Assembly: GCA_045117095.1 (NCBI GenBank)
Contig: JBGUMY010000294.1
Coordinates: forward strand, 1-45,172
Direction of reading: 5' to 3'
Origin: Bacteroidaceae bacterium
Lineage (GTDB): Bacteria; Bacteroidota; Bacteroidia; Bacteroidales; Bacteroidaceae
DNA: 45,172 nt
Shown: positions 6,686 to 41,366 of the stretch, piece after piece
How positions within the stretch are numbered: position 1 is the first letter of the stretch
How the letters are laid out: each line of letters begins with the position of its first letter
Translations under genes and position numbers: made by a program
The notes under the pieces: generated by a model
Database searches by the model: none
Seen by the model: only the letters and a program-made list of their open reading frames with translations
Told to the model about the DNA's origin: nothing

Positions 6686-6716
6686 GTGCCTACCATTTTC
6701 CTGACCTCAGGAAAAT

Positions 6717-6746
6717 GGTAAACCCACGACCGCAAAACCCTTTATA
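6717..6746 (+). promoter_or_regulatory. GGTAAAC-N18 motif (weak downstream half, TTATA)
   Basis: GTAAAC at 6718-6723 with the CCACGACC spacer signature. Preceded by the hairpin CCATTTTCC-N8-GGAAAATGG. Confidence 0.4.
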
Positions 6747-6806
6747 GTAAAAAGGGTGCTACCCTTTATAGTAAAAAGGGGGTACCCCGTTTATAGTATA
6801 AACCCT
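6737..6806 (+). repeat. Three 24-nt-spaced hairpin/iteron units (ACCCTTT-ATAGTAA-AAAGGGT x2, plus the variant TTTATAGTATAAAC)
   Basis: Units at 6737-6757, 6761-6781 and 6784-6806. The same triplet recurs at 36663-36730. Confidence 0.8.
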
Positions 6807-6821
6807 AAAAACAGTATTATT

Positions 6822-7400
6822 ATGATCGACTACAAAGGACAGCTTAACATGGGCAACGAGGCCCTACAGAGTGAGAAAACGATTACCGCCAATGAAGTGC
6901 TCCGCACCTGCGACACGAAGGCTCTGGCTCGTGAGATTTCGCATCAGAACGCGCTCATCCCCGAACAGGTGGCAGCAGCCGTGCTGGAGAACTTCTGCAA
7001 GGCAGCAGCAGAGAAGATGGCCGAGGGATTCGCCATCCAACTGAACGCTGGCGACGAGGTGGCCATCCGCATCTTCCCCGACATCCACATCAAGGGCGGC
7101 AATATCAATCTCGCCCGCGCCAAGGAGCTCGACCCGACGGTGACGGAACTGACGGCAGAGAACGCAGGCAGTCTCATCGACAAGGCCGGTGGCGTGACGG
7201 TTCGCGTGCGCTCTACCTGTATGCAGAAGTTCACCGACCTGCTCGACGGCGAGGGCATTCAGGTGAAGCGCGTCGGCATCGAGACCAAGGCCTATGTCGC
7301 CAAGACCGGCAACGGCGACGACGAAGGCGAGGGTGACGACAACACCCAGCAGGGCGGTGGTGACAACAACAACCCACCAAGCGGCGGACTGGAGGGATAA
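6822..7400 (+). CDS. HU-like DNA-binding protein with Gly/Asp-rich tail (Bacteroidota HU-HIG type suspected)
   Basis: Start moved to ATG 6822, downstream of the repeat array. The LAREISHQNALIPEQVAAAVLENF...MAEGFAIQL pattern resembles Bacteroides histone-like proteins. Assignment is from memory only. Confidence 0.4.
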   Translation: MIDYKGQLNMGNEALQSEKTITANEVLRTCDTKALAREISHQNALIPEQVAAAVLENFCKAAAEKMAEGFAIQLNAGDEVAIRIFPDIHIKGGNINLARAKELDPTVTELTAENAGSLIDKAGGVTVRVRSTCMQKFTDLLDGEGIQVKRVGIETKAYVAKTGNGDDEGEGDDNTQQGGGDNNNPPSGGLEG

Positions 7401-12664: not shown

Positions 12665-13864
12665 ATGAAAAGTATTTCGAGAGATGAAGTGTTAAGATGG
12701 GTTAGCGGTCCAAAGTCTCAAGGCGGGAGCGGTGTCGGTGGCGGGAGCGTCGATCTCGCTGGATATGCCACGCAGATATGGACCGAACAGAACTATGTCG
12801 GCAAGGAGTTTTTCAGTTCGCTGTTCAAGGCGTATGATGCCAACGGAAATGAGGTGCTGCCAAACGACACCGACACCCAGATTGACAACATCAAGGCGAT
12901 GTTCGGGTTCTGGACGGAGTTTTATGTCAGTGCCCTCGGTACTGGCGGTCAGAGCACCGTCGGCCTGCGCCTGGCTCAGTTGGCCGATGTAAATGTGGCT
13001 GGTGTTACCAACGGTCAGGTGCTCACCTACGACACCACATCGGGTAAATGGATAGCCAGCACCCCGCAGTCGGGCACAGATATGGCCACCGTCTGGGCGA
13101 ACCTCGCAGCCAACGGCAATCAGCAGATCAACTACAGTCATCTATCGGGTGCTATCAGTCTGAGTGGTAATACTATCACCATCGGCAGTGCAAGCATTAC
13201 ACCAATCACCAGCCACCAAAGTCTCGCAGGCTATGCCACAGAACAGTGGGTCGGACAGAACTATCTCCCATTGGCAGGTGGCACCATCACGGGAAGCCTT
13301 ACTGTTAATAAAACACTATCAACTGGAGGAAAAACCACAGTTGGCGGTGATCTGACCGTGAATGGCGGAGACTTGACGGTCAACGAACCAAACTCAAGCG
13401 GTGCACCTGCAATATGGTTCCAGTCTGGCGGTACAACATACGGAAATCTCCGAGTAAAGGCAAGCAACGGAGAATTTTATTTTTACAATGGTACAAATGG
13501 CGACGGTCAATCCTCAGCATGTGTAAATGCAGGTTGGTTCTATTCTTATGGTCAGGTGACAGCTCTCTCTGACGAACGCAAAAAGAACGTGGTTGGCGAG
13601 ATCGAGTTGACCATAGAGCAGATAGCAAATGCTCGGGCCGTGAAGTTCTATTGGAAAGACAAGCGCGACACTGATCTGCATGTCGGCTCTATCGCCCAGG
13701 ACTGGCAGAAGATTCTGCCGCAAGCAGTATTTGAGAAGGACGGAGAACTCTCGATGGACTACTCGGTGATTGCGCTGATGTGTGGCATCACCATCGCCCG
13801 CAAGGTGGAAGACCACGAAGAGCGATTGAATCGTCTTGAAAGAATATTAAGCATTAAACCCTAA
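12665..13864 (+). CDS. Tail fibre/spike with C-terminal Peptidase_S74 intramolecular-chaperone domain
   Basis: ALSDERKKNV...VKFYWKD...HVGSIAQDWQKILPQAV...SMDYSVI...RLNRLE matches the self-cleaving chaperone domain of fibres and endosialidases. Confidence 0.7.
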   Translation: MKSISRDEVLRWVSGPKSQGGSGVGGGSVDLAGYATQIWTEQNYVGKEFFSSLFKAYDANGNEVLPNDTDTQIDNIKAMFGFWTEFYVSALGTGGQSTVGLRLAQLADVNVAGVTNGQVLTYDTTSGKWIASTPQSGTDMATVWANLAANGNQQINYSHLSGAISLSGNTITIGSASITPITSHQSLAGYATEQWVGQNYLPLAGGTITGSLTVNKTLSTGGKTTVGGDLTVNGGDLTVNEPNSSGAPAIWFQSGGTTYGNLRVKASNGEFYFYNGTNGDGQSSACVNAGWFYSYGQVTALSDERKKNVVGEIELTIEQIANARAVKFYWKDKRDTDLHVGSIAQDWQKILPQAVFEKDGELSMDYSVIALMCGITIARKVEDHEERLNRLERILSIKP

Positions 13865-16445: not shown

Positions 16446-19400
16446 ATGGCAGATTACAGACTTTCACAATCAGGCGACGAGGTGCAGAACATCCTCGACA
16501 ACGCCGCATTGCGTGCTCAGCTGACCGCAGAGACCGAACGCGCCACAGATGCGGAAACCCATTTGCAACAGAACATCAATGCCGAGGCGCAAACACGCGA
16601 GCAGGCCGACGGAACTTTGCAACAGCACATCACCGCACTGGCTGACCAGATCGCGCAGACACTCAACAACTACTATCTGAAGAGTGAGACGATGAGCGCA
16701 CAGGAGATTCAGACGCTCGTCTCGCAGACCATCGCAGCCTACTACACCAAGTTGCAGGTGGACGCGCTGATCCACGACTTCATCACGGCAAGCGTTGACA
16801 ATCTCGTGAACTACTACTTGAAGAGCGAGACCTTCACCAAGGACGAGGTGAACCAGCTCATCGCTGCCGTGAAGCAGTTCCGCTATCAGAGTGTACCCAC
16901 CCTGCCGACGGCATCTGCCGACACGATGGGCATCATATTCCTCGTACCCAGTACCAATCCCAAGACCAAGAACACCAAGGACGAGTTCATCACCACGTCA
17001 TCGACCAACGAGCAGGGTGTGACCGTCTATGACTGGGAACAGATAGGCACAACCACGGTAGACCTGTCGGGCTACTCAACCACCGAGCAGATGAACGCTG
17101 CCATCGCCAGTGCCATCAGCACGGCACTCGCCTCCTACTATACCAAGAGTGAGACCATGAGCACGGCACAGGTCAATGCCGCCATCGAGCAGGCCGTCAA
17201 CACGGCTCTTGCCAACTACTACACCAAAGCGCAGACTGACGCAGCCATCAGCACAGCACTGAATACGGCACTCGCGTCGTACTACACCAAGGCTGAGACC
17301 AACGGGCTGCTGGACACCATCCGACAGAGCATCACAGCCGAAACTGGTGCCCGCACCGAGGCCGATGCAGCCCTGCGCCAGCTAATCAACCAGGTAAGTG
17401 CCTCGCTGGTGAACTACTACCTGAAGACAGAGACCTATTCAAAGTCTGAGGTGCAGCAGCTCATCGATGCCGTGAAGCAGTTCCAGTATCTGGTGGTTCC
17501 GACACTGCCCGCCACACCGGGCCCAGACACGATGGGCATCATATTCCTCGTACCAAGCACCAACCCCAAGACGCAAAACGTAAAAGACGAGTATATCACC
17601 ATTCTCGACGGCTCTACCTACAAGTGGGAGCATATCGGTGACACGAACATCGACCTCTCTGGCTATTCAACAACTGCCGAGATGAATGCCGCCATTGCCA
17701 GCGCACTGACCGCCTACTACACTAAGGAGCAGGTGGACGGGATGGTGGCTACTATCAACGCTGCTATCGCGCAGAAGGCGGCACAGAGCGACCTGACCGC
17801 CGAGGTTTCACGCGCTCAGCAGGCGGAGCAGGCCAACGCGGATGCCATCGCCGCGCTCCAGGACATCGTTGCTGACATTGAGACCATTGCCGAGGGCTAT
17901 GTGCGCGTGGCTGGCTCGTCTTCTCCGGCACTCAGTTATAAGTCATACAAGTACCATGAGCAGGGCGGCTTCGGACGTGAGAGCGTGTTCTCGCTGTTCT
18001 ATCCTTGCTTGGTAGGCACACCGCTGACGGGTGCAGGCACGGAGGGCAAGGTGCTGCATGTGCTTCAGAAGTTCGGTGCAAGGACGATTGACGGTACTCC
18101 GAAGTGGCTCGACATCTACGGCACGCCTCATGCCATCGACGGCTCAGAGGGTGACGTGTTGATTGTGAACATCGAGCCGTTCTACAGCATCAACGGAAAG
18201 CACGTCATTGAGGGCACAGAGTATGACGTGTTCCTCATGTCGCGCACACCGTTCACCTGGCAGGGCATCGAGGCAGAGCACATGGAGAAGTTCGGCTGGA
18301 GTCCTGACTACTGCGTGAGCCATACGGACACCGACAACGTGGTGCGTATGCACTCTGTCTATAACCCTGCGTGGAACGGCTCATACCAAGCACCTCAAGG
18401 CGTGGCTGGCAAGTATGTCTATTCTGTTGACCCAGAGACGGGCGACATCGTGGAGACCTACGATGCCAACGAGACGCTGCTGGGCGGTGCAGGTGGCTTG
18501 CACTCTACCGACATCAACCTGCCCGACGGCGAGCAGCGTGCCATGAACATGAACGCCGACCCGACGAAGACCGTGCCCTGGATGAACCAGACGGCAGAGG
18601 GTAGCAACCGTCTGATGTCGCTGATACTGGCAGAGGGTGGTACGTTCGATGCGCACAACGCAACTCGCATGGGTAGCGGCTTCTCTTCCAACGACCCAGC
18701 CACAGCCGCAGGCGACTGGGATCAGGCGGGCAGCGGTGCAAAGAACGGACTGCGCGTGATGGATAAGAACGGCGCATGGAAGTACTACGGATTTAACGGC
18801 AACGTCCGCTTCCTGAAGGGTGCGACAACGGGTACGGTGAATGCCGCTGAGGTCATCAACTCATGGAGAAATCCGTGGCACATTATGGAGGCACATCGTG
18901 CGATGTCCTATGCCATCGAGAACGACGTGCATGAGTTGGAGTGGTTTGTCTTCGAGGGCAACAAGTACAAGTACCGCAGCGTGCAAGACTTCAACGGTCC
19001 GAGTCACGGCGAGATGACCTGCGTGGTGTGGAAGCTCATGGCAACACAGGCTGGTGCCAACGCTATCGATCCGTCAGACAACGCCACAAGCATAGCCGGC
19101 AACCGCGTGGAGATACTCGTCAGCACGGCACTCGTTCACGGCATGACTACGCAGGTGTCGCCATCGTGGTGGACTTCAGGACTGTTGTTTACGGAAGATG
19201 AGAACGGACAGTATGAGTGCTTTATCGAGCGCGACCAGGCAGAGGTGGTGAAGAGCATTGCCGCCGACAACTACGATCCCGCAACGCCACGAGACTTTGA
19301 GACCATCTACGACCACGTGCTGACCGTGCAGAAAGGTGAAGGCTATGCCAAGAACTATCTCAACGGTGCGCTGATGCTTCCTGACAGCAATGCCAACAAG

Positions 19401-19610
19401 ACCGGCGCAGGCTTGCATACCTATGTGGGCAAGTATAACTGGTTCACGGGTGGTAATGCCAGTGCTGGGAAAAAGTCGGTCCGTGGCTTCCGGCGCGGCT
19501 TCACCGCTAACCTCCCGTACCTGTCTCCGTTGGCGTTGGTCGCGTACCTTTCGCCCTCGAACTCGCACTCGAGCATCGGCTTCGGCACCTGTTGTCGCAT
19601 AGCGGAATAG
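16446..19610 (+). CDS. DGR target protein: fibre-like receptor-binding protein with C-terminal variable region
   Basis: 1054 aa. N-terminal repeated YYTK/NYYLK stalk modules. The last ~45 codons (VRGFRRGFTANLPYLSPLALVAYLSPSNSHSSIGFGTCC) are the VR copy of the downstream TR. Confidence 0.85.
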   Translation: MADYRLSQSGDEVQNILDNAALRAQLTAETERATDAETHLQQNINAEAQTREQADGTLQQHITALADQIAQTLNNYYLKSETMSAQEIQTLVSQTIAAYYTKLQVDALIHDFITASVDNLVNYYLKSETFTKDEVNQLIAAVKQFRYQSVPTLPTASADTMGIIFLVPSTNPKTKNTKDEFITTSSTNEQGVTVYDWEQIGTTTVDLSGYSTTEQMNAAIASAISTALASYYTKSETMSTAQVNAAIEQAVNTALANYYTKAQTDAAISTALNTALASYYTKAETNGLLDTIRQSITAETGARTEADAALRQLINQVSASLVNYYLKTETYSKSEVQQLIDAVKQFQYLVVPTLPATPGPDTMGIIFLVPSTNPKTQNVKDEYITILDGSTYKWEHIGDTNIDLSGYSTTAEMNAAIASALTAYYTKEQVDGMVATINAAIAQKAAQSDLTAEVSRAQQAEQANADAIAALQDIVADIETIAEGYVRVAGSSSPALSYKSYKYHEQGGFGRESVFSLFYPCLVGTPLTGAGTEGKVLHVLQKFGARTIDGTPKWLDIYGTPHAIDGSEGDVLIVNIEPFYSINGKHVIEGTEYDVFLMSRTPFTWQGIEAEHMEKFGWSPDYCVSHTDTDNVVRMHSVYNPAWNGSYQAPQGVAGKYVYSVDPETGDIVETYDANETLLGGAGGLHSTDINLPDGEQRAMNMNADPTKTVPWMNQTAEGSNRLMSLILAEGGTFDAHNATRMGSGFSSNDPATAAGDWDQAGSGAKNGLRVMDKNGAWKYYGFNGNVRFLKGATTGTVNAAEVINSWRNPWHIMEAHRAMSYAIENDVHELEWFVFEGNKYKYRSVQDFNGPSHGEMTCVVWKLMATQAGANAIDPSDNATSIAGNRVEILVSTALVHGMTTQVSPSWWTSGLLFTEDENGQYECFIERDQAEVVKSIAADNYDPATPRDFETIYDHVLTVQKGEGYAKNYLNGALMLPDSNANKTGAGLHTYVGKYNWFTGGNASAGKKSVRGFRRGFTANLPYLSPLALVAYLSPSNSHSSIGFGTCCRIAE
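16806..16995 (+). repeat. Internal module duplication, copy 1 (NYYLKSETFTKDEVNQLIAAVKQFRYQ...DTMGIIFLVPSTNPKT)
   Basis: Recurs 603 nt (201 codons) downstream. Shares the perfect stretch GACACGATGGGCATCATATTCCTCGTACC. Confidence 0.8.
17409..17598 (+). repeat. Internal module duplication, copy 2
   Basis: NYYLKTETYSKSEVQQLIDAVKQFQYL...DTMGIIFLVPSTNPKT, in frame with copy 1. Confidence 0.8.
19475..19610 (+). repeat. DGR variable region (VR)
   Basis: 19475-19594 aligns without gaps to 19940-20059 (offset 465). There are 21 mismatches and every one lies at a TR adenine. Gapped similarity continues to the stop codon. Confidence 0.9.
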
Positions 19611-19749
19611 AAAACGTAAACCCGCCCGAACGAAGTGAGGGCCGCTGAGCGAAAGCGAAGCCGTAAACTGCGCGGCTTGGCGCGCCCTCCGAGCGATAGC
19701 GAAGGCACCCATACCGCCGCAAGGCGGTCGGCTCGAAAATTCAAAAATA

Positions 19750-19787
19750 GAGGTCATCTCCAGCGATGGGGATGGCCTCGTTTTTTT
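19750..19787 (+). terminator. Rho-independent terminator after the DGR target gene
   Basis: GAGGTCATC-N12-GATGGCCTC (one G-U pair), then G and T7. Confidence 0.65.
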
Positions 19788-19790
19788 CTG

Positions 19791-19820
19791 GGTAAACCCC
19801 AGACGGCATTTCGCCCAAAT
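19791..19820 (+). promoter_or_regulatory. GGTAAAC-N18-CAAAT bipartite motif upstream of the TR and RT
   Basis: GTAAAC at 19792-19797, 18 nt, CAAAT at 19816-19820. The TR starts about 120 nt downstream. Confidence 0.5.
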
Positions 19821-19939
19821 AGTGTGGAGATGTGGTGCGACATCGTTGAAACAGAAATCCATGCCACCGACCAAATAGCACAAGGGAATCGGAGTACCCG
19901 TCAGGTGGTGAGGTTGAAATAAGGCGGCTGCACTGTACG

Positions 19940-20075
19940 GTCGGTCCGTGGCTTCCGGCGCGGCAACAACGCTAACAACACGAACCTGTCTCCGTTGACG
20001 ATGAACGCGAACAATTCGCCCTCGAACACGAACTCGAACATCGGCTTCGGCAACTGAAACGCAGTAACGAAATAC
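19940..20075 (+). repeat. DGR template repeat (TR)
   Basis: Invariant copy rich in AAC codons (AACAAC, AACACGAAC, AACAAT...). It contains an in-phase TGA, so it is not a coding duplicate. Confidence 0.9.
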
Positions 20076-20267
20076 ATAAGCCCTCGATTGCTTAGACCTG
20101 AGCATGAAGAGACAGGTGCAGAGCCTCGCTGACGCTGGAGAGCGAAACAACGCAGGAAAAGGTGCTAAGACCACCAGCCGACCGCGCAAGAATGAGCGAA
20201 GGAGAGGGTAGGCTGCAAGGCGTTCGGAAACCTTGCTATCGGCGCAACAGGTCAAGACAAAAAAATT

Positions 20268-21584
20268 ATGACATCAACATGGAACAACATCACCACTGGC
20301 CTTCACGCTGCCGTATATGACAGCTACACGGCCAAGAGCTCACGTCAACGCGCCAAGCGTGAGGTGGTGGAGGTCATGGCAGATGTGGACGGATTCTGCC
20401 AGCGCAAGCGGCATGAACTGGAGTGTGACACCTACCGCATAGGCGACTATCGTCACTTCCGCCTAAAAGATAAGAAGAAGGAGCGCGACATCTCGGTATT
20501 GCCCTACGAAGACCGATGTGTGCAGAACGCCATCAAGGATGCCATAGAGCCGCTATTGCTCCGTCAGATGACCGACGACATGATGGGCGGTCTGCCTAAT
20601 TGCGGGGTACTGGCAAGCGACAAGCGGCACCAGGTGGTGGCACGAGTGCGGGTGCTCATGAACGACCGCTCGCTGAAGTATTGCTTGCAAGGCGACATCA
20701 AAAAGTTCTACGACCATGTGGATAATGTCATCAGTATGCAGCTCATTGAGCGGCAGGTAAAAGACAAGCGCACAAGGGCTGTCATACGTCAGCACCTCTT
20801 CAACCAGAAGCGGCTCGCCATCGGTGATCCATTCAGCCACCTTATCGCCAATCTCAATATGTCGGTCATCATTCGCAAGGCAAAGGAGCTGTACGGCGAT
20901 AGCATCAAGGTAGTCAATTTTGCCGACGACTTCATCGCCTTCAGCAAGGACAAAGAGACGCTGAATGCCCTGCGACGCGATATGCAGCAATGGGCAAAGA
21001 CGATGCGGTTACACTACAAGCCGATGTATGTGCGTCCCGTTGACGGTCAGGACATCATCTTCTGCGGCTACAAGTTCGGGCGTGGCTACGTTCACCTGAC
21101 CCAGCACACGAAGAAACGCTACGTCAAGGCCCGCCACAAGAAGCGCAGTATAGGCTCCTATCAAGGCATCATCGGAGTGGCAGACACGAAGCATCTGAAA
21201 CTAAAAATTCAAATAAACGACAATAAAGGAACTATGAGCGAGAAAATCAGACGACCCTTTGCAGGGCGACCCATGAAAATGGAAACAATGGAAGGTATCA
21301 ACCATACCATTGTGGACTTCCAGAAACGCAGCAGCAACCAAAAGGACTGCGACAGTTACTACCACATTCAGGCACTTGCCGACGGGCTGGGATTGATAGT
21401 GTATAGCACCGGCGCACAGAAGATATGCAAGTACCTGGACACCAAGAGCCGCACGGACATCCCACTGCGCGACATGAAGATAGTGCATGACTGGAGCGGC
21501 TTCTACTATGACGGCACCGTATATACCGATGCCGAGGAAGAAGAAATGATTCGCAAACAATTTAACATACCCAAATCAGCATGA
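20268..21584 (+). CDS. DGR reverse transcriptase with an additional 116-aa C-terminal module
   Basis: RT motifs are present: ERDISVLPYEDRCVQ, GDIKKFYDHVD, IGDPFSHLIANL, VVNFADDFIAFS. It lies immediately downstream of the TR. The RT-sized core ends near aa 322. Confidence 0.85.
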   Translation: MTSTWNNITTGLHAAVYDSYTAKSSRQRAKREVVEVMADVDGFCQRKRHELECDTYRIGDYRHFRLKDKKKERDISVLPYEDRCVQNAIKDAIEPLLLRQMTDDMMGGLPNCGVLASDKRHQVVARVRVLMNDRSLKYCLQGDIKKFYDHVDNVISMQLIERQVKDKRTRAVIRQHLFNQKRLAIGDPFSHLIANLNMSVIIRKAKELYGDSIKVVNFADDFIAFSKDKETLNALRRDMQQWAKTMRLHYKPMYVRPVDGQDIIFCGYKFGRGYVHLTQHTKKRYVKARHKKRSIGSYQGIIGVADTKHLKLKIQINDNKGTMSEKIRRPFAGRPMKMETMEGINHTIVDFQKRSSNQKDCDSYYHIQALADGLGLIVYSTGAQKICKYLDTKSRTDIPLRDMKIVHDWSGFYYDGTVYTDAEEEEMIRKQFNIPKSA

Positions 21585-21916
21585 GACAAGAAAGATTCAA
21601 TGAGCCTCACAAGCAAGGCTTGGAGCGGCTCACAGGCGACAACACAGGACTGGTGTACTGCAACGAGCGCACCGAAGTAGTGACCGACGAAGAGGGCAAC
21701 GAGAAGACTGAGTACGTTTACGACGTGTATGAGGTCACAGATGCCCGCGACCCTCACAAGGTGAAGAACGAGGTAATAGAGAATGAGCACCCCTTCGGCG
21801 ACGAAACGAAGATACTCCGCAAGACCTTGGCCAAGGTTCTGAAGGCATCAGGTCAGTATGACAGCGAGGAATACGCAGAGTTCAAGCAGTACAACGAGTT
21901 TGCCGAAAGCGTCTAA
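21581..21916 (+). CDS. Acidic hypothetical protein translationally coupled to the RT (ATGA overlap)
   Basis: Start codon overlaps the RT stop. 111 aa, Glu/Asp-rich. Confidence 0.5.
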   Translation: MRQERFNEPHKQGLERLTGDNTGLVYCNERTEVVTDEEGNEKTEYVYDVYEVTDARDPHKVKNEVIENEHPFGDETKILRKTLAKVLKASGQYDSEEYAEFKQYNEFAESV

Positions 21917-21920
21917 CAAG

Positions 21921-21953
21921 AAATCCCGAGCCATAGAGGTTCGGGATTTTTTT
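21921..21953 (+). terminator. Rho-independent terminator
   Basis: AAATCCCGA-N11-TCGGGATTT followed by a T-run. Confidence 0.7.
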
Positions 21954-21963
21954 ATTTATCAAT

Positions 21964-36525: not shown

Positions 36526-36663
36526 ATGAAACAGTATTTGAATGATGACGAGTGTGCGAAGTACATCCTGCGTCAGATTGGTTTCGGTGCCATCATGGGC
36601 ATTGCATTTTTGGCAACAGTGTTTATCGGTGGGCTGCTGGCTCACTTGGTGAGTGGGCTCTAA
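36526..36663 (+). CDS. Small membrane protein (45 aa, below the ORF-track cutoff)
   Basis: Hand translation gives MKQYLNDDECAKYILRQIGFGAIMGIAFLATVFIGGLLAHLVSGL. Confidence 0.4.
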   Translation: MKQYLNDDECAKYILRQIGFGAIMGIAFLATVFIGGLLAHLVSGL

Positions 36664-36730
36664 CCCTTTATAGTAAAAAGGGTAGTGACCTTTATAGTAA
36701 AAAGGGTATCACCCTTTATAGTATAAACGT
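36663..36730 (+). repeat. Three 24-nt-spaced hairpin/iteron units, second locus
   Basis: Units at 36663-36683, 36688-36707 and 36711-36730. Same sequence family as 6737-6806, with the third unit again the TTTATAGTATAAAC variant. Confidence 0.8.
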
Positions 36731-36747
36731 ATTTAATCAGTATATCA

Positions 36748-39745: not shown

Positions 39746-39800
39746 GTTTCCCTATTCCCCACCCTTTACTTAACTAAGTAAAGGGATGGGAATGGGAAAC
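39746..39800. repeat. Long imperfect inverted repeat (about 25 bp arms, 2-nt centre)
   Basis: GTTTCCCTATTCCCCACCCTTTACTTA / TAAGTAAAGGGATGGGAATGGGAAAC. Confidence 0.8.
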
Positions 39801-39889
39801 CACGCACACGGGCGACGCGCGACGCGCACAGGCGCACGCACGTTTATGGTTTTACAGATAATCGACTTCAGATGACTGCCGAAAACATT

Positions 39890-39943
39890 CTTTGCAAACA
39901 TTTCGGCAAATCTTTATAAACATTTTGCGAAATGTTTGCAAAG
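39890..39943. repeat. Perfect 16-nt inverted repeat CTTTGCAAACATTTCG / CGAAATGTTTGCAAAG
   Basis: Arms at 39890-39905 and 39928-39943 with an AT-rich spacer. Confidence 0.85.
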
Positions 39944-39989
39944 ATTCGAAAATCGGCTACTGAGAATATGAACTCCAAACTAACCGACC

Positions 39990-41366
39990 ATGCCAAAGAT
40001 CAGCGACGACATCATCAGAACGGTACTTGAACAGGCGAAGATTGAGGACGTGGTTGGCGACTTCGTGACGCTCCGCAAGGCTGGCGTTAACATGACGGGC
40101 ATCTGTCCGTTTCACGACGATCAGCACGACGGCAACTTCATCGTTCGTCCTTCGACGATCTCAGAAGCGAACCACGGCAACACCTACCGTTGTTTCGTAT
40201 GCGACGCCAAAGGCGGTCCCGTGCAATTCCTGATGAACGCGGAGCATATGACATTCCCCGATGCCATCCGCTATCTTGGCAAAAAGTATTGTATCGATGT
40301 CGATAACATCCAGCTCAACTGGACACCACCGCCACCAAGACCGATACCGCCACCACTGCCACCGCTGGCGATGGAACGAAAATGGGTGAAGCAGCTGATG
40401 GGCGACTACAACTACAACCCATTCACATTGTGGTTCGGGCGACTGCCCTGGAATGATCAGCAGCGGCGACAGATGAAGCGCACGCTCTGGCAGTATTGCG
40501 TAGGCTGTTGGCATGATGGGCGCGTGGTGTTCTGGTATATTGATCATGAGGGAATACCACGATCCGCCAAGCTAATGAGTTACCATGCCGACGGGCACCG
40601 CGACAAGGATCGCAACCCCGGTTGGCTCTACAACCAGGAGGGCTACCGCGACATCTGCCGACCCGATGATCATACCATCCTGAAACCGCTGTTCGGCTCC
40701 CACCTGTTGAAAGCCTATCCCGATGCCAGCGTGAACGTGGTGGAGTCGGAAAAGACGGCACTCATCATGGCGAACTACTTCGGCAATCCCGAACAGCAGC
40801 TATGGTTGGCTTGTGGCGGTCTGAAGTTCCTGAAGATAGAGTCCATGCAACCGCTGATAGATCAGGGGCGCAAGGTTTGGCTATGGCCGGACAAAGATGG
40901 TGTGGAAGGCTGGCAGACGGTAGCCGACAAGCTGGGATCTGACAACGTACAGGTTTATACCAAATTCTTCGATTCCTGCTGGATTGAGGAAGATGGCCCG
41001 AAAGCCGACATCGCGGATATTGCGGTTCGGATGCTTTACCATCCAGATTGGGTGCCAAGGAAGGTGGAAGAGCAGGGCGCGACCGAACAAAGTGCTACGG
41101 CCTCCGACCAAAGTGGCGCGACCGAACAAAGTGCTACGGCCTCCGACCAAAGTGGCGCGACCCTGTCACCACCGCCCGATGGTGTAACAGATGAAGAATG
41201 GGCTGAACACCTGGCAATCCTGAAGCAGATCGGCGACTACGACATCATTCATCCGCAAGATGAACCACTGATTAACCCCGAGGAACTGCGCGACCCGCGA
41301 CTCCATCAGTGGCGAAAGACCTTAAGACAAAAATATAACTTCAATAAATCAAGAAACAATGAGTGA
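39990..41366 (+). CDS. DNA primase (CHC2 zinc finger plus Toprim-like core)
   Basis: CPFHDDQHDGNFIV...YRCFVCDAKGGPVQF is a zf-CHC2 motif. VNVVESEKTALIM ... LWPDKDG is Toprim-like. Confidence 0.75.
   Translation: MPKISDDIIRTVLEQAKIEDVVGDFVTLRKAGVNMTGICPFHDDQHDGNFIVRPSTISEANHGNTYRCFVCDAKGGPVQFLMNAEHMTFPDAIRYLGKKYCIDVDNIQLNWTPPPPRPIPPPLPPLAMERKWVKQLMGDYNYNPFTLWFGRLPWNDQQRRQMKRTLWQYCVGCWHDGRVVFWYIDHEGIPRSAKLMSYHADGHRDKDRNPGWLYNQEGYRDICRPDDHTILKPLFGSHLLKAYPDASVNVVESEKTALIMANYFGNPEQQLWLACGGLKFLKIESMQPLIDQGRKVWLWPDKDGVEGWQTVADKLGSDNVQVYTKFFDSCWIEEDGPKADIADIAVRMLYHPDWVPRKVEEQGATEQSATASDQSGATEQSATASDQSGATLSPPPDGVTDEEWAEHLAILKQIGDYDIIHPQDEPLINPEELRDPRLHQWRKTLRQKYNFNKSRNNE
41076..41162 (+). repeat. 39-nt tandem repeat (2.2 copies) inside the primase C-terminal linker
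   Basis: GGCGCGACCGAACAAAGTGCTACGGCCTCCGACCAAAGT is repeated perfectly, encoding GATEQSATASDQS twice. Confidence 0.9.

Follow-up and report, generated by a model that had tools for sequence, protein, structure and literature searches.

The window, i.e., the whole stretch of 45,172 nucleotides that was analysed, carries on its forward strand a target (variable-protein) gene, a non-coding spacer, a repeat (TR) of the 3' end of that gene (VR), a gene for a reverse transcriptase (RT) and a small acidic reading frame, ORF111. A tail-fibre gene is located upstream of the target gene, at 12665-13864. The arrangement resembles that of a diversity-generating retroelement (DGR). The coordinates of the features are shown in Table 1.

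Table 1. Features of the VR-TR-RT region, in window coordinates.
Feature	Position	Strand	Description
Target (variable-protein) gene, 1054 aa	16446..19610	+	N-terminal repeat-rich stalk; conserved ~564-aa C-terminal module ending in VR
VR	19475..19610	+	Mutagenised zone 19500-19574; remainder constant scaffold and IMH
IMH-like VR 3' end	19575..19610	+	GC-rich CGGCTTCGGC, then ACC TGT TGT ... TAG; fixed difference from TR
Spacer after VR, non-coding	19611..19745	+	GC-rich short hairpin units GAAAACGTAAAC... / GAGCGAAAGCGA; ACCGCCGCAAGGCGGT hairpin 19713-19728
Intrinsic-terminator-like hairpin and T-run	19750..19787	+	From terminator scan; closes target gene transcript
Promoter-like motif GGTAAACCC-N-CAAATA	19789..19821	+	Presumed start of TR-RT transcript
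5' domain of DGR RNA	19834..19939	+	P1 (19863-19871 with 19900-19909); clamp 5' strand 19923-19934
TR	19940..20074	+	135 nt, non-coding; template zone 19965-20039; IMH*-like end 20040-20074
3' (spacer-like) domain of DGR RNA	20075..20253	+	P2-P6 and clamp 3' strand; ~180 nt
P2 hairpin	20089-20104	+	GACCTG in loop
Clamp helix, 3' strand	20115-20125	+	Pairs with 19923-19934
P3; P4	20126-20145; 20161-20175	+	3' domain helices
P5	20176-20214	+	Includes AGCCGA 20176-20181, complementary to TR 3' end UCGGCU
P6; CAGGTC	20215-20236; 20248-20253	+	3' domain
RT, 438 aa	20268..21584	+	RT core residues ~1-316; extra alpha/beta C-terminal domain ~334-432
ORF111, acidic, 111 aa, pI 4.7	21581..21916	+	Start overlaps RT stop codon (ATGA)
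Terminator-like hairpin and T-run	21918..21959	+	Closes TR-RT-ORF111 unit

Positions 19475-19594 of VR align without gaps to positions 19940-20059 of TR, at an offset of 465. The two copies differ at 21 positions, and at each of these TR has an adenine; the TR copy (120 bases) contains 32 adenines in total. For 21 random mismatch positions the probability of all lying on adenines is 9e-16. The alignment confirms what a sequence-only reading of this DNA had described (P ~1e-15), and the codon changes cited there are present: AACAAC/TTCACC, AACACGAAC/CTCCCGTAC, ACGATGAAC/GCGTTGGTC, and AAC TGA AAC in TR against ACC TGT TGT in VR. The repeat pair is unique within the window when both strands are searched, and the repeat search found no second VR elsewhere in the window. 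VR comprises codons 1010-1054 (the final 44-45) of ORF 16446-19610, as had been stated for the last ~45 codons of the 1054-aa protein. TR contains an in-frame TGA at 20054 and is covered by no plausible ORF, which bears out its earlier description as a non-coding template. Its template zone is adenine-rich, with 27 adenines and 11 AAY codons. Seventeen of the mismatches (19500-19573) are located inside the mutagenised zone; the remaining four, at 19588 and 19592-19594 (AAC to ACC, TGAAA to TGTTG), are located outside it. Past 19594/20059 the window does show the further similarity that had been reported, with a single indel on either side; several relatives lack it.

The RT contains the Pfam domain RVT_1 (E 7.5e-18). 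Its top match among the PDB sequences is 8ub7, the DGR RT of BPP-1 (E 1e-11), and 8ub7_A is also the top fold match (E 1e-15, TM 0.77) of an AlphaFold (AF2) model with a pLDDT of 78; the fold search returned RT cores only. On the basis of RVT_1 and these top sequence and fold matches, the enzyme encoded adjoining TR is an RT of the DGR clade. The motifs FADD and IGDPFSH are invariant in 51 aligned RT sequences. The sequence [LIV]GxxxSQ is a frequent palm-motif signature of DGR RTs and lies outside their functional definition. In IGDPFSH the Ser is kept and His stands for the signature Gln, with SH invariant across the family; twelve more distant DGR RTs with a readable motif all have IGxxxSQ. 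Adenine mutagenesis is evident in the RT family despite the SH motif. The C-terminal domain of the RT is kept in all relatives and gave sub-threshold matches only against Pfam and PDB.

Twenty-one distinct related cassettes, all with the same VR-TR-RT layout, were compared. In these cassettes 351 of 553 TR adenines (63%) differ in VR, where they are replaced by T (144), G (134) or C (73), and 9 of 1673 non-A positions (0.5%) differ between TR and VR. TR is conserved among the loci; where the TR of one locus departs from that of another at a base other than A, the cognate VR carries the same change. Across 106 distinct VR alleles, adenine-templated codons have an entropy of 2.75 bits and the other codons one of 0.30 bits. 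The residues out of reach of adenine-only change of AAY codons, i.e., E, K, Q, M and W, have a share of 19% in the remainder of the same proteins; at the AAY-templated columns they account for 0 of 1166 residues. The sequence-only reading had named mismatches off the adenines in further VR alleles as grounds for giving up its interpretation; further alleles were looked at and the pattern held. The alleles were compared between related phages, and activity is deduced from those differences. As an alternative, a receptor-binding tip could have varied through ordinary diversifying selection and recombination, with the second repeat as a duplication remnant and no template, as hypervariability is common at phage receptor-binding tips and the target stalks of the relatives are mosaic. 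This explanation has next to no probability: variation is limited to codons with an adenine in the TR counterpart, no residue goes beyond adenine-only change, the non-A positions are identical in 99.5%, and a DGR-type RT gene follows TR downstream in every related locus. Adenine-directed diversification of VR appears to be ongoing in natural populations.

The 3' end of VR behaves differently from the mutagenised zone. Its Thr-Cys-Cys stretch (19588, 19592-19594) is invariant or nearly so in the 106 distinct VR alleles, as is the pattern GFG-TCC. In the DNA, all loci have the same GGCACCTGYTGY in VR and the TRs vary at this place; ACCTGYTGY after CGGCTTCGGC is likewise common to all VRs and distinct from every TR. 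Since the Thr-Cys-Cys stretch is constant in alleles and loci whatever TR reads, the mismatches at 19588 and 19592-19594 are regarded as fixed IMH/IMH* differences. Adenine mutagenesis, which had been claimed for all 21 mismatches, therefore holds for the 17 within 19500-19573 and not for these four. The GC-rich start and the fixed VR-TR differences together probably represent an IMH/IMH*-type 3' boundary. Such a boundary had been suggested near 19594; its actual place is ~19575, ~20 nt further 5'.

The spacer units after VR vary in copy number, and the GCAA-loop hairpin (19713-19728) is found in 11 of 11 aligned loci. Downstream of VR the DNA fold does not exceed shuffled sequence in stability (z -0.63), and folding energy thus lends no support to a BPP-1-like cruciform after the IMH. 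The stem of the terminator that closes the target gene transcript shows compensatory differences among the loci keeping it; the segment is missing in 3 of 11 aligned loci (L002, L009, L010). The promoter-like motif belongs to a phage-wide intergenic family of 7-10 copies, located ~50-65 nt before start codons. The next such motif is at 21962, after the second terminator, and terminators and promoter-like motifs bracket the TR-RT-ORF111 unit.

Conservation of the RNA unit starts at ~19834. In an alignment of 27 loci, P1 shows compensatory changes in 8 of 11 pairs, and the clamp helix in 3 of 10 pairs with 99% of cells paired. For the 3' domain the paired cells amount to 97%, and compensatory changes occur in 22 of 46 pairs; 0 of 500 shuffles reach such values, and slid controls are 27-39% paired. 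P2 and P6 fold into hairpins in almost all of the sequences, and the sequences of their stems are highly diverse. A possible pseudoknot of GACCUG (20095-20100) with CAGGUC (20248-20253) is 91% paired, with one compensatory pair only. UCGGCU (20040-20045) and AGCCGA (20176-20181) could form a template:primer duplex, which would compete with P5; both strands are invariant. An Rfam scan of 19400-20400 gave no match. It is the covariation that carries the RNA structure, since the single-sequence folding energy of the 435-nt RNA is no better than that of shuffled sequence (z +1.06). As supported by covariation, TR would lie inside a roughly 430-nt RNA, with the clamp helix around the template. The transcript ends, and cis-priming from the 3' domain, are putative.

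Pfam searches of ORF111, of the ORF in the VR-TR spacer and of 20 further small ORFs in the window found no Avd. The cassette has no detectable Avd gene, while a very divergent Avd is conceivable. It would not be a canonical Avd-dependent DGR (BPP-1 type, Architecture B), as it appears to be without the small basic four-helix-bundle protein (PF05635). The absence of an Avd gene had been missed in the sequence-only reading. The 95-aa ORF at 19635-19922 in the VR-TR spacer was considered as Avd and rejected because it has no family match, spans the terminator and the promoter-like motif, and lies in a region that varies in length and is partly deleted in relatives. A 359-aa antisense ORF at 19176-20255 was judged spurious on the same grounds. 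The VR-TR spacer is non-coding in the relatives.

Taken together, repeat anatomy, RT identity, allele hypervariation, co-evolution of TR and VR, RNA covariation and transcription signals support a functional, phage-encoded DGR of the accessory-poor 'target-TR-RT' type in a temperate phage, with a probability of roughly 0.93. The element had been proposed as a DGR for its VR at the 3' end of a fibre-like gene, its non-coding TR and its RT, and the RT identity, the 21 cassettes and the 106 alleles agree with that proposal. A relic, i.e., a DGR that formerly diversified and is now inactive in this phage, with the 17 differences as frozen history, is highly improbable. The evidence of activity is comparative, no Avd was found, the signature Gln of the RT is replaced by His, and one relative (L004) has several non-A mismatches and a partly decayed TR/VR match, all of which would suit a relic. 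The family as a whole speaks against decay: SH is invariant in all members and the mutagenesis signature is family-wide, and RT, its C-terminal domain, TR and the flanking RNA are conserved, with compensatory changes, down to 44% RT identity. Furthermore, L001, a phage whose RT is 99% identical, differs in VR at adenine positions and shares two non-A changes between this VR and its own TR, which requires recent homing.

For a functional DGR the following steps are proposed. A transcript from the promoter-like motif near 19800 would comprise the 5' domain, the 135-nt TR, the ~180-nt 3' domain, RT and ORF111. The RT would copy TR into cDNA, with random bases opposite the template adenines, and the cDNA would then take the place of VR (19500-19574) in the 3'-terminal part of the tail-fibre-like gene (1054 aa). 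Both the 3' limit and the direction of the transfer would be determined by the GC-rich, IMH-like end that starts at ~19575. Eleven AAY and five other A-containing codons could give ~1e16 protein variants, most plausibly for re-targeting host receptors.

ORF111 adjoins RT in 27 of 27 distinct related loci, in which RT identity goes as low as 44%, and the genes that follow it in these loci fall into 12 or more unrelated groups. Its family has 309 members with a pI of 4.8 ± 0.2. ORF111 may be an accessory gene of this cassette. CH1 accessory proteins ('Architecture E', Lineage 3) are acidic (pI 4.7 ± 0.2), 160-169 aa long and found only in Avd-less DGRs (PMC5758913); compared with them by description only, ORF111 is of a similar size class, charge (pI 4.7) and context, and is shorter (111 vs 160-169 aa). 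The chances are just short of even that ORF111 stands outside the DGR, as a gene of the head/connector module that lies beside RT by chance, with the RT acting alone or with a host factor. In several contigs head-completion and portal genes follow ORF111, in one contig a 127-aa gene parts RT from the ORF111 homologue, and ORF111 resembles none of the known accessory proteins in sequence (no match in Pfam, PDB or PHROG, with sub-threshold matches only in Pfam and PDB, and no homologue in deposited phage genomes). The adjacency in all 27 loci with changing next genes, the start overlapping the RT stop, the terminator after ORF111 and the likeness to CH1 argue for a link to the cassette. The RT C-terminal domain and/or ORF111 may replace the missing Avd. 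Mutagenic retrohoming would then be Avd-independent, with the C-terminal domain and/or ORF111 holding the TR RNA on the RT and the His keeping adenine-specific misincorporation; we propose this tentatively, at somewhat less than even odds. If true, Avd-independent retrohoming would be a second, mechanistically distinct way to assemble the DGR ribonucleoprotein.

The C-terminal module of the target is common to more than 335 homologues, among which the length of the stalk differs. The family is small and unannotated, with 49 representative clusters worldwide. The best BFVD fold match of the target is a gut-phage protein annotated as 'receptor binding complex' (E 3e-22), and the remaining BFVD matches of the C-terminal 564 aa are either 'receptor binding complex' or uncharacterised phage proteins only. 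A role in receptor binding is probable. No Pfam match was found in the target, even at E up to 10, and none of 10 distant relatives has a Pfam domain. A profile search against PDB sequences returned coiled-coil noise from the stalk columns only. The AF2 model of the C-terminal 564 aa has a mean pLDDT of 57, with values <50 over VR, and this low-confidence model had no PDB fold match. A C-type-lectin/FGE-like fold had been expected for the C-terminus; it may be there, but no Pfam or PDB match came to its support, and the model is weak in VR. A structure of the variable domain would tell if a further display scaffold is in use among DGRs.

The prototype DGR, BPP-1 (mtd-avd-TR-brt), shares with this element a VR at the 3' end of a tail-fibre/receptor-binding gene, a non-coding TR rich in AAC codons with adenine-specific differences, and a GC-rich IMH-like end with fixed VR/TR differences. 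Its RT is the closest solved homologue of the RT described here. The clamp helix, which joins the two flanks of TR, parallels the upstream:spacer (avd:Sp) 'cPRT stop' duplex of the BPP-1 DGR RNA, and the prototype RT is inactive without Avd (bioRxiv 10.1101/2023.10.23.563531). BPP-1 has avd, whereas none was detected in the window, be it between VR and TR or elsewhere, and the VR-TR spacer consists of a non-coding terminator and promoter. The RT is 438 aa long with an added C-terminal domain, as compared to 328 aa in BPP-1, and has His in place of Gln187 of the BPP-1 SQ motif, which contacts the incoming dNTP in BPP-1. Also unlike BPP-1, an acidic 111-aa ORF follows RT, and the target has no recognisable Mtd/C-type-lectin signature. 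The target-TR-RT core without avd, which occurs in 29% of surveyed DGRs, is shared with the accessory-less 'Architecture A1' and with 'Architecture E' (Wu et al. 2018, NAR 46:11, PMC5758913). About 20% of DGR RTs have C-terminal extensions of up to ~150 aa without known motif (PMC5758913).

Avd-less DGRs are already documented, and as a discovery of its kind the cassette is ordinary. The lineage comprises over 250 sequenced relatives, found both in metagenomes and in MAGs that carry the label Prevotella or Bacteroidaceae. DGR catalogues already run to tens of thousands of entries. To our knowledge, no natural system other than DGRs hypermutates proteins in a targeted way in prokaryotes or their viruses, and we know of no mechanistic insight into DGRs other than that from the Avd-dependent Bordetella phage element. 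The window appears to hold a clean example of a DGR, and evidently an active one. The traits of the lineage are the lack of Avd, the extra RT domain, the acidic partner ORF, the altered dNTP-pocket residue and the covariation-supported template RNA. With no Avd, the RT domain, ORF111 and the RNA, the lineage would be a convenient system for the study of assembly and priming in Avd-less DGRs, and it offers a compact target-TR-RT-ORF111 cassette.

In a nucleotide search against deposited phage genomes the cassette had no match. The nearest RT in these genomes, at 33% identity in the protein search, is that of the crAss-like gut phage cr6_1 (NC_055894). As in the window, cr6_1 has a tail protein as target, TR in a ~320-nt gap, RT and no avd; the target module also matches this DGR target 'tail protein' (weak structural match). 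Unlike the RT described here, the cr6_1 RT has 342 aa, no C-terminal domain and a canonical SQ (with the Q from a recoded TAG). The backbones are unrelated: that of cr6_1 is podovirus-like Crassvirales, while the cassette in the window belongs to an integrase-bearing tailed phage.

The cassette is a genuine diversity-generating retroelement (DGR), active by comparative evidence, which diversifies the C-terminal tip of a tail-fibre-like target protein of a temperate phage. This reading had been proposed from the sequence alone, and is borne out by the identity of the reverse transcriptase (RT), by related cassettes and by natural alleles of the variable repeat (VR). The coordinates of the features are shown in the table.

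Coordinates of the DGR cassette and of associated features in the window
Feature	Positions	Remarks
Target gene	16446-19610	1054-aa ORF
VR, aligned segment	19475-19594
Terminator	19750-19787	VR-TR spacer, after the hairpin units
Copy of promoter-like motif	19789-19821	VR-TR spacer
5' hairpin (predicted)	19863-19871 with 19900-19909
Long-range clamp (predicted)	19923-19934 with 20115-20125	Just upstream of TR, with downstream of TR
Template repeat (TR)	19940-20074	Aligned segment 19940-20059
Four further hairpins (predicted)		RNA 3' domain
RT gene	20268-21584	438 aa
ORF111	21581-21916	111 aa, acidic
Starts of intergenic motif	4327, 5449, 6718, 7405, 15806, 19792, 21965, 24550, 26059

VR and TR match without gaps over 120 nt at an offset of 465, and differ at 21 positions, all of them among the 32 adenines of the TR segment (chance for 21 randomly scattered differences, 9e-16). 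The VR forms the final 44-45 codons of the target ORF. The TR carries an in-frame TGA, lies outside any credible ORF and could give rise to approximately 1e16 protein variants. Alignment and ORF length agree with the sequence-only reading, and all codon examples quoted there were found in the sequence. No second such repeat pair was found on either strand of the window.

The RT was identified by Pfam RVT_1 (E 7.5e-18) and by a PHROG reverse-transcriptase family. By sequence, the nearest relative of solved structure is the DGR reverse transcriptase of the Bordetella phage BPP-1 (8ub7, E 1e-11), which is also the best fold match of the AlphaFold model (pLDDT 78; E 1e-15, target TM 0.77). The RT motif reads IGDPFSH, whereas the more distant DGR RTs fetched have IGxxxSQ; in the structure of the BPP-1 enzyme, the Gln replaced here makes contact with the incoming nucleotide. 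In the RT of crAss-like phage cr6_1 (NC_055894.1, locus position ~2800) an in-frame TAG takes precisely the place of this Gln (IGNYLS*FF), which fits TAG-to-Gln recoding there. The RT of the window also has an additional alpha/beta domain (residues ~334-432), retained by all relatives. The C-terminal region (21255-21581, residues ~330-438) gave sub-threshold matches to the C-terminal (exonuclease) domain of arenavirus nucleoprotein (Pfam E 0.009, score 15.8 vs. a cut-off of 27; PDB E 0.6-0.7), a lead too weak to trust.

Homologues of the RT, of the target C-terminal module and of the ORF following the RT are present in metagenomes (~270-335 each), a few of them from MAGs labelled Prevotella or Bacteroidaceae. 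The order VR-TR-RT and adenine-specific mismatches were seen in almost all of 44 IMG/VR loci compared. In 21 distinct cassettes of the family, the VR differs at 351 of 553 TR adenines (T 144, G 134, C 73) and at 9 of 1673 non-adenine positions. Where a non-adenine base differs between the TRs of two loci, each VR has the base of its own TR. The RTs of locus L001 and of the window, for example, are 99% identical; the two VRs are unlike at adenine positions, and each matches its own TR at two non-A changes. This pattern requires that the TR was copied into the VR repeatedly and recently. Among 106 distinct VR alleles, the entropy is 2.75 bits for codons templated with adenine at position 1 or 2, vs. 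0.30 bits for other codons. The five amino acids unreachable from AAY by adenine-only changes (E, K, Q, M, W) are absent from all 1166 residues in the eleven AAC/AAT-templated columns, and account for 19% of the remainder of the same proteins; the adenine restriction therefore holds with more alleles. Two target homologues, P0191 and P0200, terminate in unmutated TR-encoded sequence (...NNANNTNLSPLTMNANNSPSNTNSNIGFGNY). These are probably assembly chimeras jumping from VR to TR, or otherwise freshly homed, unmutated VRs.

The 21 mismatches are not all alike, contrary to the sequence-only reading. The last four (19588 and 19592-19594) do fall on TR adenines, but sit in a Thr-Cys-Cys stretch that is invariant or nearly so across the 106 alleles and reads GGCACCTGYTGY in all VRs regardless of the local TR; they are therefore fixed differences of the IMH/IMH* (3' boundary element) type. 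The mutagenised zone ends at ~19574, followed by GC-rich CGGCTTCGGC. The weaker similarity past 19594, considered earlier as part of the boundary, is present in the window but absent from several relatives.

Across the family, conservation (nhmmer E 1e-133 to 1e-27) starts ~105 nt before the TR and reaches as far as the RT start codon, and this stretch contains many compensatory changes. A seven-helix RNA model was evaluated on a 27-locus alignment, using 500 shuffles and registers slid by 1-3 columns as controls. In this model 97% of cells are paired, with double changes at 22 of 46 pairs; the observed values were not reached by any shuffle, and the slid registers were only 27-39% paired. Two additional hairpins, P2 and P6, form in nearly all sequences, with many different stem sequences. 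In position the clamp matches the 'cPRT stop' duplex that upstream and spacer sequence form in the BPP-1 DGR RNA, a duplex predicted for 207 of 278 DGRs with Avd (Handa et al., bioRxiv 10.1101/2023.10.23.563531), whereas the clamp of the window occurs in a lineage without this accessory protein. A template:primer pairing is possible between UCGGCU at the TR 3' end and AGCCGA at 20176-20181; both are invariant, and the pairing overlaps helix P5. A loop-to-3'-end pseudoknot is weakly suggested. The region matched no Rfam family, and its single-sequence folding energy is unremarkable.

No Avd family match was found in the cassette ORFs or in 20 other small ORFs of the window. The prototype RT, that of BPP-1, requires Avd for activity (Handa et al., bioRxiv 10.1101/2023.10.23.563531). 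In the survey of Wu et al. 2018 (PMC5758913), 29% of DGRs had no accessory gene, 'Lineage 3' lacked avd, ~20% of DGR RTs had unexplained C-terminal extensions, and the small acidic accessory protein CH1 was restricted to Avd-less DGRs. With its extra RT domain and acidic 111-aa ORF the window cassette fits these Avd-less DGRs; it is a system of known kind, within a documented but mechanistically unstudied class. The lineage was probably already counted in large DGR surveys, since related contigs are in IMG/VR.

The start of ORF111 (pI 4.7; family mean 4.8 +/- 0.2) overlaps the stop codon of the RT, and a terminator lies downstream of the ORF. It was found after the RT in each of 27 distinct loci, whose RT identity goes down to 44%, and the gene downstream of it belongs to at least 12 unrelated groups. 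One contig has another small gene between RT and ORF111 homologue, and head-completion and portal genes often lie downstream; ORF111 is therefore a likely member of the cassette. In three more distant loci (L020, L033, L038) the homologue runs on into a ~150-aa C-terminal extension conserved among the three, so the small protein can also make up an N-terminal domain within a larger protein. The RT C-terminal domain and/or ORF111 may substitute for Avd, in which case the cassette would be a good model for Avd-independent retrohoming.

The window, which encodes a terminase nuclease domain, M15 endolysin, tail fibre, head-tail adaptor, head-completion protein, portal, protease, major capsid protein, major tail protein, integrase and primase, is from a temperate tailed phage; no close relative of the cassette was found among deposited phage genomes. 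The target gene is located after the tail-fibre gene and probably encodes a receptor-binding protein. Its C-terminal module has as best match among predicted viral structures a gut-phage protein annotated 'receptor binding complex', and weakly matches the DGR target 'tail protein' of phage cr6_1. For the C-type-lectin fold predicted in the sequence-only reading no supporting match emerged: none of the target was found in Pfam (even at permissive thresholds) or PDB sequences, nor of its structure model, which is poor over the VR (pLDDT < 50), among PDB folds. The domain family is unannotated and small: 1.84 billion proteins yield 49 representative clusters of it. The target stalk contains an internal duplication (16803-16995 / 17406-17601, ~600-nt spacing) and YYTK-type repeats. 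Target homologues are 629-980 aa long and have the C-terminal module in common, hence stalk length is modular.

The VR-TR spacer is non-coding and holds a variable number of short, GC-rich hairpin units, together with a conserved hairpin that has a GCAA loop. A 359-aa antisense ORF (19176-20255, minus strand) spanning VR, spacer, TR and RNA 3' domain was rejected as an artefact of GC-rich repeat sequence, because it crosses the terminator, the promoter-like motif and a region of variable length in relatives. Just past the VR stop codon (19611-19700, and equivalently in L001-L013) there are repeated units with GAAAACGTAAAC and GAGCGAAAGCGA, whose copy number varies among relatives. GAAAACGTAAAC resembles the -35-like part of the promoter-like motif; the units may serve in protein binding or homing, or have no role. 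The motif itself occurs in intergenic regions throughout the phage, 50-65 nt before start codons, as GTAAACC with CGAAT/TATAAT ~17 nt on. It was missed by a sigma-70 consensus scan and probably represents the type of promoter that the phage uses for middle or late genes. Tandem copies of the palindromic unit CCTTTATAGTAAAAAGGG, at 6712-6823 and, 30 kb apart, at 36662-36741, may be protein-binding sites, operator-like or of another kind. Immediately before the primase gene (39990-41366) lie two near-perfect palindromes (39748-39799 and 39889-39944; 25-nt and 28-nt arms, 84-89% complementary), which may mark an origin or an operator.
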